Below are positions 50,264 through 57,532 of a stretch of DNA of 64,000 nucleotides, one piece after another. Origin of the DNA: Escherichia phage dhaeg; sequence record MN850609.1; one strand, written 5' to 3'. The translations under genes were made by a program, and so were the position numbers. The first letter of the stretch is position 1. Every line of letters starts with the position of its first letter. The notes beneath the pieces are model-generated. The model was given only the letters and a program-made list of their open reading frames with translations. It ran no database searches and was not told the origin of the DNA.

Positions 50264-50716
50264 ATGATTATCAATGAAAACTCTTGGCATGTTAAATTAC
50301 ATGACCGCTTTTATGCCAGTTATTCGCGTCCGCGATCATTATGCGCATACTTCTGGAAAATGGTTTGGGTGTGCTTTATGTGTTCTGTGCTTGCAGGTAG
50401 TACTATTTTCGGCTTAACTGTTGCAGGTGCCGGTATATTGGAGCAGTTCTTTGTATTGAGTACTCCTGTTGGTTTAAGTTTAGGTTTTATTTTAGGACTG
50501 ATTATAATAGCCCTTATTCTAGCGGTAGCTTTTGGTTTGGTGTATGGTCTAATGAATTTATGGGCCCGGTACGATTTACGTAAAGAAGAAAAAGAATGGG
50601 AACGCATTAAAGCTAAACGTGAAGGAAAGGAAATTAAAGAAAATGTTTTCATTCAATATATTAAAGCTCGTAAATCTAAGATGTGTCCGGTAATCCATTT
50701 TGAGGCTAAGAAATGA
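50264..50716 (+). CDS. Membrane protein
   Basis: 150 aa with three predicted TM helices. Confidence 0.45.
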   Translation: MIINENSWHVKLHDRFYASYSRPRSLCAYFWKMVWVCFMCSVLAGSTIFGLTVAGAGILEQFFVLSTPVGLSLGFILGLIIIALILAVAFGLVYGLMNLWARYDLRKEEKEWERIKAKREGKEIKENVFIQYIKARKSKMCPVIHFEAKK

Positions 50717-51723
50717 GAACAGTTATGAAAGGCTACTTCGGTAGCCACCTTTATGGAACAAGTACTCCGGAATCTGATGTCGATTTTAAAGAAATCTTTG
50801 TTCCACATCCGCGTGATATTCTGTTAGGTACGGCAATGAACCATACCAACCTGAACACGAATAACACTGCTTCCAAAAACACTAAAGATGATGTTGACCA
50901 TGAGCTTTACAGTCTGAAATATTTCTTTAAACTAGCTGCTGAAGGCGAAACCGTTGCTCTGGATATGCTCCACACTCCGCCTGAAATGGTGGTTAAATCT
51001 GATTTACCTGATGTATGGAAATTTATCCAAGATAACCGTTCGCGTTTCTATACAACCAACATGAAAGCCTATTTAGGGTACGTCCGTAAGCAAGCTTCTA
51101 AATATGGTGTTAAGGGTTCTCGACTGGCTGCTTTACGTGGTGTACTGGCAATTGTTAACCAGATTCCTGAACAGTGGGTTGATTATCAAGAAGATGGTTC
51201 TACTAAGCAACGACGTACTAAGGTAGAAGATATTAAGCACCGGCTCCCTGAAAATGAGTTCTGTGAATGGGTATTTCATAACCACGAGAAAACAGGTCCT
51301 CAAACGTTCTATACCGTCCTCGGTCGTAAATACCAAACTACTTTGTCATTAATCGAGCTCAAGCAATCTCTGAATAAACTTGATGCCGAATATGGTGAAC
51401 GTGCTCGTAAGGCCGAAGCCAATGAAGGTATTGACTGGAAAGCTCTGAGCCACGCTTATCGTGCTGGATATCAGTTGAAGGAAATCTATCAAACAGGCGA
51501 TTTGGTTTATCCACTTAAAAATGCTTCTATTATTAAAGCAATAAAAGCAGGTGATATGCCTTTTAAAGTGGTCCAAGGGCTGCTAGAAAACATTGTTGAT
51601 GAAGTTGAAGTCCTGGCTGTACAAGCTCATAAGAACGGTATACCTGAGAAGGTGGACATGAAGTTCTGGGACAAGTTCGTCGAAGAGGTGTATCTTGACA
51701 ACCACAACTCTTATTACCGCTAA
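50713..51723 (+). CDS. Polβ-superfamily nucleotidyltransferase-fold protein
   Basis: 336 aa. GSHLYGTSTPESDVDF (GS-x11-DxD) and a later acidic cluster DDVDHE. Confidence 0.55.
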   Translation: MRTVMKGYFGSHLYGTSTPESDVDFKEIFVPHPRDILLGTAMNHTNLNTNNTASKNTKDDVDHELYSLKYFFKLAAEGETVALDMLHTPPEMVVKSDLPDVWKFIQDNRSRFYTTNMKAYLGYVRKQASKYGVKGSRLAALRGVLAIVNQIPEQWVDYQEDGSTKQRRTKVEDIKHRLPENEFCEWVFHNHEKTGPQTFYTVLGRKYQTTLSLIELKQSLNKLDAEYGERARKAEANEGIDWKALSHAYRAGYQLKEIYQTGDLVYPLKNASIIKAIKAGDMPFKVVQGLLENIVDEVEVLAVQAHKNGIPEKVDMKFWDKFVEEVYLDNHNSYYR

Positions 51724-52026: not shown

Positions 52027-53007
52027 ATGTTAACTATCAAAATCAACAAAGGTATCTATCGAGGTAATGAAATCTCTGGTACGTTCATGAGTTCAGGTAA
52101 AACCTGGTTCCCTAATAAAATTCATGAATCCGAAGCTCACCTCGGTGACGGCAAGGTATTTGTACAGATTGATGGTGTTGAACGTGGTGTGTGGGTGTTC
52201 AAATGTGACATCGAAATGGAAGGTGCTGAAGCTCCTGCAATGGTCACCGAATCCGCTGAAGAAATGAAACACCGCATCAACAAACGTTTTAAAGTAATGA
52301 ACATGATGACTAACGGAATCATCGATGGTAAAATTCGTTCCCTTATCATCTCTGGTGCCGCAGGTATTGGTAAAACATACTCTTTGGATAAAGCATTACA
52401 AAATGCCCATGAAAATGAAACTATCGAATATAAATCAATCAACGGAAAGATTAGTGGAATCGGTCTTTACGAGCAGCTTTGGAATAACCGCGGCCCTAAT
52501 AGTGTTCTTCTTATTGATGATGTTGATGTATTCTCTGACATGGATATCCTGAACCTTCTGAAAGCCGCATTGGATACTGGTGAAAAACGTAAGGTGTGTT
52601 GGAGCACTTCAAGTTCTTACCTCGACGATAAAAATATCGATAAAGAATTCGAATACGAAGGCACCATCGTGTTCATCACCAACGTTGATATTGACCGTGA
52701 ATTAGAGCGTGGAACTAAACTTGCTCCACACCTCCAGGCTTTAGTATCTCGTTCCGTTTATCTCGACTTGGGTGTTCACTCAAACGAAGAGATTATGGTT
52801 CGGGTTGAAGACGTTATCCTGTCCACTGATATGATGCAAAACCGAGGTCTGACCGATGCCGAGACTTATCAAGCTTTAGCATGGATGAAGGCTAATGTAT
52901 CTCGTCTTCGTAACGTATCATTACGTACAGCTCTTTATCTGGCGGACTTCATTGCCACCGATAAAAATGACTGGAGCGAAATCGCTGAAGTTACACTTCT
53001 GAAATAA
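52027..53007 (+). CDS. AAA+ ATPase with an N-terminal domain of about 100 aa
   Basis: Start moved to MLTIKI after GGAGAATATAATG (ORF track 51904 runs through the promoter). Walker A GAAGIGKTY, Walker B VLLIDDVD, sensor-1-like FITN. Confidence 0.6.
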   Translation: MLTIKINKGIYRGNEISGTFMSSGKTWFPNKIHESEAHLGDGKVFVQIDGVERGVWVFKCDIEMEGAEAPAMVTESAEEMKHRINKRFKVMNMMTNGIIDGKIRSLIISGAAGIGKTYSLDKALQNAHENETIEYKSINGKISGIGLYEQLWNNRGPNSVLLIDDVDVFSDMDILNLLKAALDTGEKRKVCWSTSSSYLDDKNIDKEFEYEGTIVFITNVDIDRELERGTKLAPHLQALVSRSVYLDLGVHSNEEIMVRVEDVILSTDMMQNRGLTDAETYQALAWMKANVSRLRNVSLRTALYLADFIATDKNDWSEIAEVTLLK

Positions 53008-53362: not shown

Positions 53363-53401
53363 TTTACATCTCCAGTAGAAATGATACTATAGACCTATCA
53401 A
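53363..53401 (+). promoter_or_regulatory. Early promoter cassette
   Basis: GTTTAC-16-TACTAT-AGACCTATCAA. Imperfect inverted repeat CTCCAGTAG/CTAATGGAGG. Confidence 0.55.
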
Positions 53402-53416
53402 CTAATGGAGGTTATC

Positions 53417-53941
53417 ATGAACGCTAAAGATATTTTTTCACTGATTAATTTTAACAATGGTAATTTCAAATCTGAAAAACAAAGCAAGTTCTTTAACGAC
53501 GTTGCTTGTGGTAATGAGATTACCGTATCTGGAGGAGAGATTTACAAAAGCCGTTGGAACTGGATTGTTATCATCGATTCAGTTGGTATTGTAGAGCTCT
53601 ATAAAAACACTAACAAAAAACGTACTCTTCACTGGAGTCGTGAAACCAATCAAGCTTATCAAGCCGAGCGTAATAAACGTTTAATGCCTACTGAATCTGA
53701 CCTGGCAAACGTTAAATCAGATATCGCTTATTTTGATAACTTGATTGCCGAACAACAAGCGGTTATTGATAAGTTTGACGAAATCAAAGCTTGTAAAGAG
53801 ATTCCTGAATTTATGCGGGAATCAGTAAACGAACAGTATGCCCTCACTTCAGGTCGTATCGAGCAGTACAAATCACAACGAGCTGAACGCCAAGCTCTGC
53901 TTCAGAAATTTGAAGAGCGTTTAAAGACGGTTCTCGCATAA
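53417..53941 (+). CDS. Protein with C-terminal coiled coil (family member A)
   Basis: About 174 aa from MNAKDIF after GGAGGTTATCATG. C-terminus IAYFDNLIAEQQAVIDKFDEI... Confidence 0.5.
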   Translation: MNAKDIFSLINFNNGNFKSEKQSKFFNDVACGNEITVSGGEIYKSRWNWIVIIDSVGIVELYKNTNKKRTLHWSRETNQAYQAERNKRLMPTESDLANVKSDIAYFDNLIAEQQAVIDKFDEIKACKEIPEFMRESVNEQYALTSGRIEQYKSQRAERQALLQKFEERLKTVLA

Positions 53942-53975
53942 ACGCTTTATACCAAGGATGGTATAATGGTTCTAG
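53942..53975 (+). promoter_or_regulatory. Possible MotA-type middle promoter
   Basis: CGCTTTA (MotA-box-like) 12 nt upstream of TATAAT. No -35 GTTTAC. Confidence 0.3.
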
Positions 53976-54004
53976 GTTCTTAATTACTTACTGAGGAAAT
54001 TATT

Positions 54005-54850
54005 ATGTCACAAGCAATTAATCAAATTCGTTCTGAAGTTAAAAAAGTTGTTAAATTTGGTCGTATTCCTAGTTCTAAAGAAGTGGTTGAAAAGGTCCTA
54101 TATATGATGTGGGACAAGTTCAATGTTTGTACTGTTAAAGATGACTTTATTAAAATCTTTGACAAGACTAAAGGTTCGTTTACGTTAGAAGACCGGGTCA
54201 TGAAAACTCTTCGTAAAACAGGTATGTTGTCTCGTGCTAATGCCAAAATTATTCTTAAAAATTATAACAAAGGCTACGACCTTTATGGTCGTTTAATCCC
54301 GGCGATGTCATTTGGTGAAGTTGTTCAAGACCTTCATGCCAACCAACGACGTTTACTGGCTCTTGGCGCTCGACTTGCAAAAGGTCTTGATAAACAAATG
54401 ACATTTAAGACTAACGGTTCAGGTGATTGGATTATCTTTAATATTGTTAACCACCCTGGAAATGAAAATGAGTATACCATTTCGACTTTTAGTGGTTGTC
54501 AATACGACAACTGGAAGTTCCATCTGCGCTTGGCCCTGTCTGAATTAGAACAACACGGTGTTCTTAGTTTTGGTGATGCTGAAACTGGAGTAGGTCAGCG
54601 TATTAAACTTTATAAAATTAAAGACCTGGCTGAAGAGCATTCAGAACAAGCTCCTAAAATGGAACCTGTACCAGTGCGCAGCAATGAGAAACATCAGGCC
54701 CAGATTGAGTATTTTAGCAATTTGCTTACTTGCTTGAATGTTACAATCCAACAACAAGATGATGAGATTTTCCGACTCTCTGGTCTTAATGCCAAAGCTA
54801 AGGCTGAACGCCAGAAATATATCGATATCCTAAATCTTCTTAAGGATTAA
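54005..54850 (+). CDS. Protein with C-terminal coiled coil (family member B)
   Basis: 281 aa. C-terminus IEYFSNLLTCLNVTIQQQDDEI.. parallels member A. Confidence 0.5.
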   Translation: MSQAINQIRSEVKKVVKFGRIPSSKEVVEKVLYMMWDKFNVCTVKDDFIKIFDKTKGSFTLEDRVMKTLRKTGMLSRANAKIILKNYNKGYDLYGRLIPAMSFGEVVQDLHANQRRLLALGARLAKGLDKQMTFKTNGSGDWIIFNIVNHPGNENEYTISTFSGCQYDNWKFHLRLALSELEQHGVLSFGDAETGVGQRIKLYKIKDLAEEHSEQAPKMEPVPVRSNEKHQAQIEYFSNLLTCLNVTIQQQDDEIFRLSGLNAKAKAERQKYIDILNLLKD

Positions 54851-54934
54851 TTATGGAATGGCTCGCTGTTCTTGGTTATGTAATCGTAGCCACGGGTGTT
54901 CTGTGGCTAATTTTCTCAAACATTATAGGTTAAT

Positions 54935-55150
54935 ATGGAAATCTTAGGTTTTATTCTCCTTTACTTTGTGCTAGGATTTATGACGACCTTTATCATTCAT
55001 AAATCAGGTGATTGGAATCCGATCGAAATTGAATCAAGCTATGATGCAGTATTCATTACACTAGTATGGCCCCTACTTTGGGTTGTTTTGGTCATTATGA
55101 TGGTGTTTTGGCCTATCGCTAAATTCTATGAAAAATTATTTGGACTTTAA
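54935..55150 (+). CDS. Small membrane protein
   Basis: 71 aa with two TM helices. Confidence 0.4.
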   Translation: MEILGFILLYFVLGFMTTFIIHKSGDWNPIEIESSYDAVFITLVWPLLWVVLVIMMVFWPIAKFYEKLFGL

Positions 55151-55151
55151 T

Positions 55152-56021
55152 ATGAACATTAAAACACGTAAAGAATACTCTATATACGACCATGACACAA
55201 CTCGTCGTATCGCTATTGACAGGTTAGCCGACTTTGGTCATATTTGTAATGGTAATTATACTTATGGCGTAGGTCGTAAAGGAACTTATATTTCTTCTTT
55301 GAACGATTATTGCCGTCGCCCAGCCCACCTGTTTGGTGCAACATTACGAGCTAATATCAAAGACCTCTTGGCTACTGCAGGACGTATTTCTACGGTTCCT
55401 GTTAATATCAAGAATATTAATTTTACGGCCCGTAACCTAGTCATTAATATTCTGTCTGACGGTATTCAAGTTCGTTTTCGCCCCACCTCAAAAGGTAATA
55501 AGGCCCTTCGTGAAGCATTCGAAACCTTATTCAGAGAAGCAATGACTCGTATTAAGGCCGTAGAATCATATAAAGTTACAACCGATGAATATGCTGATTG
55601 TTCCGGGCAAGCCGATGCAGTGTATATCAGAGTTAAACTAACTAGCGAATATCTTTTATCTTATGCCCCTTATCAACCCCAACAAAAGGACCCACAAATG
55701 GAACGTCGTATCTCTGCAGTATCATGTGACAGCGTAGGCCAGTATGCAGCCTATGACAAATTCAAAACCACCGCTGTGCCTAGTCCATTCAATTCCGAAC
55801 CGTATCATTGGAAAATTAAACCTGATAATTCTTTGGTTGTTACTAACCCTACGATGAAACCTATTGAGACCTATTATGCAGATAGCATTCAGGAATCAAT
55901 CCATCGTTTAAATGGTCAGATTGAAGATGAGAAAAAGAGCATTCAAGACGTTCTTAATCGCATCAAGAATATGGAAAACCAGCGTGACAAGCTTCGCGCG
56001 GCACTATTAGCTCTAAAATAA
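55152..56021 (+). CDS. Protein with C-terminal coiled coil (family member C)
   Basis: About 289 aa from MNIKTRK. C-terminal heptad region ..IEDEKKSIQDVLNRIKNMENQRDKLRAALLALK. Confidence 0.5.
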   Translation: MNIKTRKEYSIYDHDTTRRIAIDRLADFGHICNGNYTYGVGRKGTYISSLNDYCRRPAHLFGATLRANIKDLLATAGRISTVPVNIKNINFTARNLVINILSDGIQVRFRPTSKGNKALREAFETLFREAMTRIKAVESYKVTTDEYADCSGQADAVYIRVKLTSEYLLSYAPYQPQQKDPQMERRISAVSCDSVGQYAAYDKFKTTAVPSPFNSEPYHWKIKPDNSLVVTNPTMKPIETYYADSIQESIHRLNGQIEDEKKSIQDVLNRIKNMENQRDKLRAALLALK

Positions 56022-56022
56022 T

Positions 56023-56060
56023 GTTTACATCCAAGGACGGATGGAGTATAATCCTTTTAT
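56023..56060 (+). promoter_or_regulatory. Early promoter
   Basis: GTTTAC-18-TATAAT. Small inverted repeat AAGGA/TCCTT around the -10. Confidence 0.5.
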
Positions 56061-56080
56061 CAACTACTGAGGAGAATATC

Positions 56081-57091
56081 ATGACCCGTACTGAATACAT
56101 CAATGCCTTTACTACGTATATCACTGACAATACCCCTCCATTAACCCCATATGAGGTGATAGTTTCCAATATCAATAAATGGGTAGACCAAATTGATGAA
56201 GATTTGTCGCTGTATTTTAAATCTGAAATAGAAAAGATTGCAGGGCGTTTGTTTATCCCTGATATCATAGATACATTTAAAGGTTCTCGACTTCTTTCGC
56301 GGCTGGTTAATAAGGATATCCTTTCAGAGTTTGGCAAAGAGAAACACCCAGGTTCCAGCCACGTTGTTAGCTACCAATGGTTTGGTGATGTTTTAAAAAG
56401 CTATATCAAAATGAAAGGTATGGATCCTAGTGGTCTATTTCCACAGCGTTGGACTAGTGAATTTAAGGCTAACTCTGCATTAATTCTCAAAGCGGCCTCT
56501 AAAACCATAGTTTCTGGTGATTCCCGTACTATTCACCCTATGGCTAATTGCATGATTAAAACAAATAGTTATAAAGGAAAAGCAATTATTTCTGTTATTT
56601 GGTCACCTAATAGGAAACCTAAAGATGACGCGGAAGTTGTAAAGTATCAAGATATTGCTTACGACACCTTGAATATTATCGAACAAGCCTTAGCTTTTAT
56701 GGATACAGTAGAGAAATATGAGACTCAAGAAGTAAAACATTTCTATGGCTGGAAAGGATACGAGGTCTTAGTAAAAGTTCGCGAAATCAAATGCCATGTT
56801 CCAAAAACTGACGCTGAAATTTACCAAGAAAAATGTGAGGAAATTGTGAACACTGATAAAGAGCCTGCTACATTAGAAGACTTGATTAACGACTTGAATA
56901 GCCCTATCATGGCTCCTACACCAATTACTAAATCCAAGTTACCGGAAATCGTTGCCTTAGAAAAAGCGTATAAAGATGCCCTTGCTATTAACAAAAAACT
57001 GACTGGCCAATATACCGCTGCCAAGAAACTTTGGGAAGAGTCTACCAATCGTTTAGACCGTCTTGAACAAGCTCTGGAGCTGTTGAAATGA
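56081..57091 (+). CDS. Protein with C-terminal coiled coil (family member D)
   Basis: About 336 aa from MTRTEY after GAGGAGAATATCATG (ORF track 56021 overlaps the promoter). C-terminus ..[14 protein letters not shown]. Confidence 0.5.
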   Translation: MTRTEYINAFTTYITDNTPPLTPYEVIVSNINKWVDQIDEDLSLYFKSEIEKIAGRLFIPDIIDTFKGSRLLSRLVNKDILSEFGKEKHPGSSHVVSYQWFGDVLKSYIKMKGMDPSGLFPQRWTSEFKANSALILKAASKTIVSGDSRTIHPMANCMIKTNSYKGKAIISVIWSPNRKPKDDAEVVKYQDIAYDTLNIIEQALAFMDTVEKYETQEVKHFYGWKGYEVLVKVREIKCHVPKTDAEIYQEKCEEIVNTDKEPATLEDLINDLNSPIMAPTPITKSKLPEIVALEKAYKDALAINKKLTGQYTAAKKLWEESTNRLDRLEQALELLK

Positions 57092-57309
57092 AATATCAAT
57101 TAGCCGATGATATCGACCAAACTATTCCTGATTGGAATCAAATTATTAAAATTGTCGAACGTCGTGAAAAAGCTTCTAAGAACGTTCCTAACTGTCCTGA
57201 GTGCGGAACTGAACAAGTCCAGTTGACTCAATGGCGTCATAATCCGCTTCAGTATAAATGCCGTCATTGTAAACACCGATTTGAGCGAGATGAAAATGGC
57301 AAAGCGTAA
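57088..57309 (+). CDS. Zinc-ribbon small protein
   Basis: 73 aa. CPECG...CRHCKH. Confidence 0.45.
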
Positions 57310-57532
57310 AGAATATGTAGAGGCCGCTGATAAGGCGGTCCGTGAACTTACTTTGGCTTATTATAAAGAGCACGGTAAATTTCCGGACAGTTATTCAGTA
57401 TTGAAATCTGCTTTAACTCGTTCGTATAATAATATACTATCTGATGTATATGATTTAAAATACGAACACCTCGAAAAATACGGAACAGAACTTGACCGTT
57501 CTGAAGCATTCAAACAAGTATTAGGAATTTAA
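57281..57532 (+). CDS. Hypothetical protein
   Basis: 83 aa. Confidence 0.4.

Follow-up and report, generated by a model that had tools for sequence, protein, structure and literature searches.

The locus

The stretch of DNA analysed here (the window) comprises 64,000 nucleotides (nt) of Escherichia phage dhaeg (MN850609.1). Within it we considered four neighbouring open reading frames (ORFs), located between positions 53,417 and 57,091, which encode proteins of 174, 281, 289 and 336 amino acids (aa). All four lie on the plus strand and have the lengths given in a preliminary description of the sequence. That description had also called the genes consecutive; they are indeed neighbours on one strand, but a conserved 71 aa membrane ORF and a possible ORF of 26 aa lie between the second and the third (Table 1).

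The ~4.4 kb around the four genes are 98% identical to the Escherichia phages dhabil and CLB_P2 and 94% identical to JS10/JS98 (Straboviridae, Dhakavirus). In the JS10 record the ORFs are named nrdC.8, nrdC.6, "hypothetical protein" and nrdC.4, and they are flanked by nrdC.10/nrdC.11 and by nrdC.2/nrdC.1/nrdC. In this T4-like (Dhakavirus) phage a hypervariable block of early accessory genes extends from nrdC.10 to nrdC, and the region belongs to it. The order of genes in the window is NrdC.8, NrdC.6, the 71 aa ORF, NrdC.5 and NrdC.4, compared with NrdC.8,.7,.6,.5,.4 and.3 in T4; the window holds no copy of NrdC.3. T4 NrdC.3 matches the N-terminal 150 residues of the 336 aa protein (E=9e-9).

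The gene left unnamed in JS10 occupies the position of T4 nrdC.5, between the nrdC.6 and nrdC.4 homologues, and its 289 aa product matches PF23882 far above the cutoff of 30 bits, with residues 1-289 falling on profile positions 9-307. The start of the 336 aa gene at 56,081 is supported by the promoter-like site just upstream, and agrees with the N-terminus of T4 NrdC.4 (MTRNEYI) and with a shared ribosome-binding region, ACTGAGGA. Each of the four proteins is assigned to a separate PHROG of unknown function.

Table 1. Features of the four-gene region and of the genes upstream of it
Feature	Position	Strand	Basis
nrdC.11, RlaP-type DNA polymerase beta-like nucleotidyltransferase	50713-51723		Pfam E=1.8e-11
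nrdC.10, P-loop AAA/STAND-like ATPase	52027-53007		Pfam matches just below threshold
Promoter-like site, TTTACA-16-TACTAT with TG	53363-53390	+	Consensus scan; gap upstream of 174 aa gene
174 aa NrdC.8 homologue	53417-53941	+	69% identity to T4 NrdC.8 full length; phrog_2274 E=2.5e-102; homologues with PF26901
Two long helices of 174 aa protein, residues 93-125 and 131-173, containing IAYFDNLIAEQQAVIDKFDEI	53693-53935	+	AlphaFold2 model
281 aa NrdC.6 homologue, family member 1	54005-54850	+	48% identity to T4 NrdC.6 over 192 aa; phrog_2257 E=3e-126
Predicted C-terminal helical module of 281 aa protein, residues 229-281, ending ILNLLKD	54689-54847	+	Heptad run; family conservation
Possible hydrophobic ORF of 26 aa (MEWLAVLGYVIVATGVLWLIFSNIIG)	54853-54933	+	Read directly from sequence
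Terminator-like hairpin	54887-54909		Inside 26 aa ORF
71 aa predicted membrane protein, two predicted membrane helices	54935-55150	+	phrog_7899 E=2e-31; in 17 related loci
289 aa NrdC.5 homologue (DUF7235), family member 2	55152-56021	+	PF23882 397.1 bits; 26% identity to T4 NrdC.5 over 296 aa, E=2e-19
51-residue C-terminal heptad helix of 289 aa protein, ending QRDKLRAALLALK	55863-56015	+	AlphaFold2 helix, block pLDDT 64-86
Strong promoter-like site, TTTACA-17-TATAAT, 11/12	56024-56052	+	Consensus scan; just upstream of 336 aa gene
336 aa NrdC.4 homologue, family member 3	56081-57091	+	45% identity to T4 NrdC.4; phrog_1435 E=6e-143; homologues with PF26897
Predicted C-terminal heptad helix of 336 aa protein, residues 288-336	56942-57088	+	Periodicity; end-to-end alignment with NrdC.5 helix

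Homology of the 281, 289 and 336 aa proteins

When the four window proteins were compared pairwise by BLASTP, no match was significant, and hhalign comparisons of shallow single-family profiles gave E-values of 0.014-0.44, with the exception of NrdC.4 against NrdC.3. As direct profile comparisons were weak, intermediate families were needed to connect the proteins. To the preliminary description the N-terminal parts of the four products had looked unrelated. Once the last 70 residues are cut from every protein (hereafter "N-only"), however, the 281, 289 and 336 aa proteins emerge as homologous both in hhalign comparisons and in iterative searches with hidden Markov models (HMMs). N-only searches seeded with NrdC.6-like and with NrdC.4-like sequences reached the same 68 proteins, comprising NrdC.3,.4,.5 and.6 as well as ten other clusters. 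An NrdC.8 seed reached no protein outside its own family, and no reversed-sequence decoy was found at E<=10 with the N-only profile.

Comparisons of merged group profiles agree. N-only, the NrdC.4/.3 group aligned with NrdC.5 at E=5e-6 (86% probability, 163 columns), while the NrdC.6 group aligned with the cluster group c146 at E=3.8e-6, with NrdC.4/.3 at E=3.5e-5 and with NrdC.5 at E=1.6e-3; all control pairs remained at E>=0.018. At full length the NrdC.6 group matched NrdC.4/.3 with 95% probability (E=2.6e-8, 271 collinear columns), and NrdC.5 matched NrdC.4/.3 and the c146 group with probabilities of 91% and 95%, respectively. The group alignments are collinear over 207-271 columns and correspond to the helices and strands of the AlphaFold2 (AF2) model. 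Their landmarks are a SRLLS..L..FG helix, a ..LL..ASR. helix and an A...hD.VE helix, followed by an end-anchored terminal helix (LK); the NrdC.4 and NrdC.5 terminal helices align end to end and in register. Family HMMs built without the window sequences detected exactly three members in the six frames of the window.

The suggestion that a common helix had been fused to interchangeable domains is thus replaced by another: the N-terminal domains are collinear, distantly homologous alpha/beta domains, which argues for tandem duplication of a whole gene and subsequent divergence. At the DNA level, no repeats between the paralogues of the kind expected from recent duplication or gene conversion were found beyond the common ribosome-binding region.

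Searches of larger collections gave the following picture. Foldseek comparison of the AF2 model of the 289 aa protein with viral predicted structures returned near full-length matches (269-316 aligned columns, 12-16% identity) to uncharacterised proteins of 309-374 aa from T4-like phages of Enterobacter, Erwinia, Klebsiella, Pectobacterium, Yersinia, Acinetobacter and Serratia. The NrdC.5 profile retrieved 67 proteins from a large database, all carrying PF23882, and nine clusters from 1.84 billion representatives; at those database sizes the cross-family links fall below threshold, with the exception of P0154, a metagenomic protein of 315 aa which is among the nine. In P0154 the N-domain is of the NrdC.4 type (E=2.4e-9) and the helix of the NrdC.5 type (E=3.5e-14). 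Its N-terminal part has NrdC.4/NrdC.3-like features (MTRNEVI..., FKHSRILSS..., LKLASKT), its C-terminal part the NrdC.5-like PAERHFASQM...TQRGKLLRAIQALK, which points either to an intermediate lineage or to recombination between paralogues. A sequence-profile search of the PDB for a known fold yielded coiled-coil noise only.

The C-terminal helices

Structure prediction for the N-terminal domains, which the preliminary description had proposed, was available as AF2 monomer models of two proteins, and gave an alpha/beta domain in the 289 aa protein and a beta-rich domain in the 174 aa protein. In the former, the alpha/beta domain (residues 1-172) is followed by a low-confidence or disordered linker (173-236) and by one extended, isolated helix (238-288).

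A heptad-repeat helix had been claimed for the C-terminus of each product. Long C-terminal helices are present, as seen in the AF2 models of the 289 and 174 aa proteins, but the heptad pattern is clear in the 289 and 336 aa proteins, weak in the 281 aa protein and not significant in the 174 aa protein. Our periodicity score is a crude home-made measure, and a coiled coil was taken to require sustained 3.5-residue hydrophobic periodicity, uninterrupted by helix breakers, for 28 residues or more. The heptad register of the 289 aa protein is unbroken over residues 244-289, with mostly Ile at position a and mostly Leu, Val or Met at d; its 3.5-residue periodicity was reached by 8 of 5000 shuffles (best period 3.50). 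For the predicted helix of the 336 aa protein the count was 19 of 5000 (best period 3.45). The module of the 281 aa protein has a heptad run of 29 residues (231-259) and a conserved Gly (RLSGLN) in its middle, and its periodicity is weak (397/5000); it is nonetheless kept across the NrdC.6 family.

Similarity between C-termini was gauged against shuffles that preserve heptad positions, equivalent to random coiled coils of equal composition. Single sequences were compared by Smith-Waterman alignment of the last 80 residues (500 shuffles), and profiles over the last 63 residues (150 shuffles). By the first test the 289-336 aa and 281-289 aa pairs stood out modestly (10/500 and 12/500), with 181/500 for the 281-336 aa pair; the three pairs involving the 174 aa protein were not significant (128/500, 35/500 and 448/500). 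In the pairwise profile alignment, which had likewise been suggested at the outset, NrdC.5-NrdC.4 scored best (2/150), four other pairs lay at 7-9/150, and NrdC.8-NrdC.4 at 42/150. E-values of direct family-profile comparisons of the C-termini were 0.0024-0.14. The preliminary description had named a C-terminal similarity no greater than that of composition-matched random coiled coils as the outcome that would tell against it; measured in this way within the window, it is borderline among the last three genes and lacking in the first.

Through intermediate families the three proteins are strongly linked at the C-terminus: C-only hhalign gave E=6e-7 for the NrdC.6 group against NrdC.5 and E=3.4e-10 for NrdC.5 against the c146 group. 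In a leave-one-group-out experiment with a pooled C-module HMM the NrdC.5-like helix scored 21.7 bits, a value reached by none of 1000 shuffles. A C-module HMM that includes close orthologues gave the three proteins E-values between 1e-15 and 2e-21; up to E=10 it had no other match in the window. A terminal motif, h..[A/h]h..h[K/R/N], is carried by 52 of 65 family members as against 111 of 1649 other ORFs, and by none of 14 NrdC.8 proteins. By eye, the end-anchored motif can be followed through proteins of 290-390 aa from many clusters (QRDKLRAALLALK, QRSKLNNALNALN, QYSKLFNAMNALKS and QRAKLLHAMQELRK, with further instances in QRDVLKKAIEVLIG, KANGLRNAIEVLK and ERQKYIDILNLLKD).

The 174 aa NrdC.8 homologue

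The 174 aa protein stands apart. Its supposed "near-identical" segment shared with the 281 aa protein (IAYFDNLIAEQQAVIDKFDEI versus IEYFSNLLTCLNVTIQQQDDEI) has 7 identities in 21 positions, and when the 281 aa sequence was shuffled, its best 21-residue match to the 174 aa protein still had at least 7 identities in 163 of 200 trials; BLASTP of the two proteins gave E=2.7. The claim of a C-terminal module common to all four products does not hold either, as the 174 aa protein fails the shuffle, hhalign and HMM tests. Against all family groups its hhalign probability was at most 2.5% (N-only, at most 0.7%), its C-terminal E-values were 0.018-0.14, and the family HMMs, C-terminal profile included, did not match it even at E<=10.

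The AF2 model shows a beta-rich domain followed by the two helices of Table 1, with block pLDDT (predicted local distance difference test) values of 78-97 over residues 101-170. We read the pair of helices in this model as an antiparallel helical hairpin, and the 3.5-residue periodicity was not significant for either of them in the shuffle test. Full-length NrdC.8 homologues are at least 65% identical to one another. By profile comparison and predicted architecture the 174 aa protein is a member of a separate, well-conserved family outside the paralogue family, and as such a conserved neighbour unrelated to the adjoining array. A variable domain joined to a common helix, the architecture first suspected for all four genes, therefore describes the last three, in which a conserved C-terminal helix accompanies a far more variable N-terminal part, but not the 174 aa protein.

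Family anatomy, copy number and divergence

To place the three genes in context, 34 loci from T4-like phages were fetched using the conserved nrdC.10 gene as anchor, and 36 loci were examined. The gene content of the interval from nrdC.10 to nrdC varies greatly among them. The 68 family members come from 34 loci and all map to the interval that follows nrdC.10 and precedes nrdC.2/nrdC, and in the searches made the family was found only in T4-like phages. In each member an alpha/beta domain at the N-terminus is connected by a variable, probably disordered linker to a helix of ~50 residues at the C-terminus, which typically ends h..A h..LK; the heptad pattern of that helix is clear in two of the three window copies.

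A single copy is present in 22 loci and three copies in nine, the window included (one NrdC.6-type, one NrdC.5-type, and one NrdC.4- or NrdC.3-type). Four copies occur in T4 and three other T4-type loci, while a fifth T4-type locus (L025) has five ORFs, its NrdC.4 copy being split in two. Iterative searching detected no copy in the two most divergent loci, L042 and L045. This pattern suggests lineage-specific tandem expansion of a single ancestral gene and points to lineages of E. coli T-even phages having expanded the family to three or four members by tandem duplication. A 348 aa ORF in L042 (17220-18266) matches the N-only family profile at E=1.7e-5, so the family probably extends beyond the 68 proteins counted.

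Divergence has been rapid. When the window phage is compared with T4-type phages, the flanking NrdC.1 and NrdC.10 show 71-76% identity and members of the family 29-47%. In the NrdC.6 pair (60 versus 43%) and the NrdC.4 pair (65 versus 44%) alike, the helix has changed less than the N-domain. The genes themselves are known T4-type genes; their unity as one family of NrdC.3,.4,.5 and.6 appears not to have been captured by Pfam or PHROGs.

Two irregularities were noted in individual loci. In the T4 reference genome (NC_000866, L011:10007-10130, minus strand) nrdC.6 has a 1-nt deletion, reading GAGCTGATATTTC where close relatives have GAGCTGAATATTTC; the conserved C-terminal helix is replaced by IFLFNNMMMKFSDYLD, while the other frame still encodes ISIQQYDDEIFRLSGLSSKAKSEREKLIKIVDLLKS. 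NrdC.6 of laboratory T4 may be a truncated or inactive allele, or the sequence may be in error. Secondly, locus L016 (IMGVR_UViG_2974741249, Escherichia phage vB_EcoM_005, 155 kb) has in-frame internal deletions in three neighbouring genes between 11391 and 14697: the NrdC.8 homologue is reduced to 141 aa with most of its second helix lost, the NrdC.5 homologue to 268 aa, and the NrdC.4 homologue to 323 aa with most of the terminal helix lost. These could reflect real decay or an assembly artefact.

Proposed function and alternatives

The preliminary description had likened the architecture to that of anti-defence proteins, a guess which fits the literature. In plaque assays, T4 nrdC.5 supplied in trans allowed a deletion mutant to plate again on bacteria with Dsr1, a SIR2 NADase (PMC9391042); nrdC.1 inhibits Septu (bioRxiv 10.1101/2025.11.20.689424), gp49.2 inhibits OLD (PMC13096335), and nrdC.1-6 can be deleted from T4 (PMC9825161). 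We infer that the three genes most likely belong to an anti-defence family which has been duplicated and is diversifying, and whose conserved helix serves oligomerisation. The fast-evolving alpha/beta domain would bind and block a host defence protein, divergence among the paralogues would have given them different defence proteins, or variants of these, as targets, and the helix, judging from its heptad pattern, would render the proteins homo-oligomers, probably parallel dimers. That the genes are fast-evolving, tandem and diverged paralogues of one accessory family of T4-like phages, related over their full length, is, taken jointly with this functional model, a reading we hold to be somewhat better than evenly supported.

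Several considerations weigh against it. Firstly, the paralogy is drawn from intermediate families and from merged profiles built on shallow alignments, albeit with clean controls and decoys; taken singly, the hhalign comparisons made directly between the families of the three window genes are weak (E 0.03-0.4). Secondly, when groups were left out of the pooled C-module HMM, only the NrdC.5-like helix rose above heptad-preserving shuffles, although the messy multi-family alignment probably cost that model sensitivity. Thirdly, the AF2 prediction is of moderate confidence (mean pLDDT 66, predicted template modelling score 0.50), and helix-mediated oligomerisation is suggested by the heptad pattern, the models being of monomers. 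Finally, a phenotype is on record for NrdC.5 alone among NrdC.3-.6; the anti-defence role is proposed for the window proteins by analogy with T4 NrdC.5, and, the 289 aa protein being only 26-29% identical to its T4 counterpart, anti-Dsr1 activity may not have been conserved.

A more ambitious form of the same reading would make NrdC.3-.6, together with the single-copy relatives in other T4-like phages, a superfamily of defence inhibitors that has so far gone unrecognised. Tandem duplication would have yielded a range of specificities, the paralogues blocking different immune proteins or alleles, and the helix would permit homo- and hetero-oligomers, allowing combinatorial or avidity-based inhibition of oligomeric targets such as Dsr1. 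We regard this as rather unlikely.

Alternatively, the paralogues could be variable adaptor or substrate-recognition subunits working with NrdC.10 and NrdC.11 rather than stand-alone defence inhibitors, with the helix docking and the variable domain selecting the target. NrdC.10 and NrdC.11 are conserved in all 36 loci; in 34 of these, one or more family members follow a few kb downstream on the same strand, and no part of the family is better conserved than the helix. Variable unrelated genes nevertheless separate the family from nrdC.10, and the family genes have apparent promoters of their own. Moreover, plasmid-expressed T4 nrdC.5 was sufficient for the rescue on Dsr1 cells described above, with the caveat that the mutant may have kept nrdC.10 and nrdC.11. 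On balance such a role seems improbable.

We consider it quite improbable, too, that domain shuffling joined one oligomerisation or docking helix to four unrelated effector or recognition domains. Single-sequence BLASTP sees no N-terminal similarity, PHROGs and Pfam hold the four proteins in separate families, P0154 can be read as a recombinant, and the helix is the best-conserved part across families (for NrdC.5 against the c146 group, C-only E=3.4e-10 versus N-only E=2.3e-3). Yet N-only profiles and iterative searches link the three proteins collinearly with clean controls, the 174 aa protein has neither the family domain nor the helix module and differs in its helical architecture, and the segment on which the idea turned is at chance level.

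A generic coiled-coil resemblance among independent neighbouring accessory genes, with no common origin or function, holds for the 174 aa protein and would suit the marginal standing of most window C-terminal comparisons against heptad-preserving shuffles (p about 0.02-0.3), the non-significant pairs with the 174 aa protein and the modest direct profile E-values, but for the other three it is very doubtful, given that their homology is recovered with the helix removed, that the helices align in register from a common end with a motif enriched in family members, and that the map position of the family downstream of nrdC.10 is constant.

More than 100 genes of T4 and its relatives are still without known function, and the block from nrdC.1 to nrdC.11 is emerging as an anti-defence island. 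Were NrdC.3,.4,.5 and.6 indeed one diverging family, with one known phenotype (anti-Dsr1) and a copy number that varies from one to four between phage lineages, the uncharacterised copies would be likely counter-defence factors with other targets, and the division into variable alpha/beta domain and conserved helix would offer a guide to their dissection.

Neighbouring features and annotation

The two genes upstream of the array, nrdC.11 and nrdC.10, are kept in every locus while everything downstream of them varies, and a functional link between these genes and the variable downstream genes is possible.

Between the second and third genes, the 281, 26, 71 and 289 aa ORFs are tightly spaced (TAA-tt-ATG, TAA-t-ATG and TAA-t-ATG), and their arrangement makes translational coupling of the small ORFs likely. 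A single nucleotide separates the stop codon of the 71 aa ORF, which is unannotated in the JS10 record, from the start codon (ATG) of the 289 aa gene. The best promoter-like sites fall in the gaps before the 174 and 336 aa genes, an arrangement consistent with T4 early transcription units; the total of such sites in the region is not above that in shuffled sequence, and the site at 53363-53390 is a positional hint only.

Two resemblances among 5' ends in the region may be due to chance. The NrdC.5-like gene (55152-55177) and the nrdC.1 homologue (57290-57315) begin with a common stretch of 26 nt at 77% identity, and several nrdC-region proteins have similar N-terminal peptides (M-K/N-T/A-K-R-K-E-Y, MTRTEYI, MKTRKHYI).

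The names attached to these genes call for care. Many GenBank records of related phages (for example OL770107 for CLB_P2, MN850621 for dhabil, and those of P0001, P0019, P0076 and P0109) describe NrdC.4,.5 and.8 homologues as "thioredoxin". Pfam and NCBIfam scans found no thioredoxin or reductase domain in the four proteins, and the NCBIfam scan returned no matches at all; the thioredoxin label is likewise unsupported by a thioredoxin fold or a CxxC motif. The nrdC.x names denote map positions only, and the "thioredoxin" label has been carried over from the neighbouring nrdC gene. A 2026 paper takes nrdC.8 to be a nucleotide reductase in interpreting RNA sequencing data (PMC13275509); the present analysis corrects both database names, "thioredoxin" and "nucleotide reductase", which are already entering the interpretation of transcriptomes.

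Comparison with known systems

The closest characterised relative is T4 NrdC.5 (PF23882; Srikant, Guegler & Laub 2022, PMC9391042), with which the 289 aa protein shares its map position, an alignment over 296 residues and the terminal helix motif (QRDKLRAALLALK versus QRSKLNNALNALN). Apart from its low identity, it differs in lacking ~45 N-terminal residues of the T4 protein. The 336 and 281 aa proteins are orthologues of T4 NrdC.4 and NrdC.6 (45% and 48% identity), although the T4 reference NrdC.6 is without the C-terminal helix owing to the frameshift noted above. In reference resources the uncharacterised early proteins T4 NrdC.3,.4 and.6 stand as separate families of unknown function (PF26897/phrog_1435 for NrdC.4; phrog_2257 for NrdC.6). 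The 174 aa protein is the full-length orthologue of T4 NrdC.8 (PF26901, phrog_2274) and, unlike the neighbouring paralogues, is highly conserved rather than fast-evolving.

Beyond T4, DSAD1 of an SPbeta-like phage, which inhibits DSR2 by direct binding (PMC10981675, PMC10973363), offers an analogy, as an early accessory protein directed against a sirtuin NADase. The array also resembles the anti-defence islands of T-even phages (tifA/dmd/adfA, gp49.2 and nrdC.1) in neighbourhood, early expression, dispensability in laboratory hosts and rapid gene turnover. Those islands, however, consist of unrelated small genes, while part of the present one appears to be the tandem expansion of a single diverging family.

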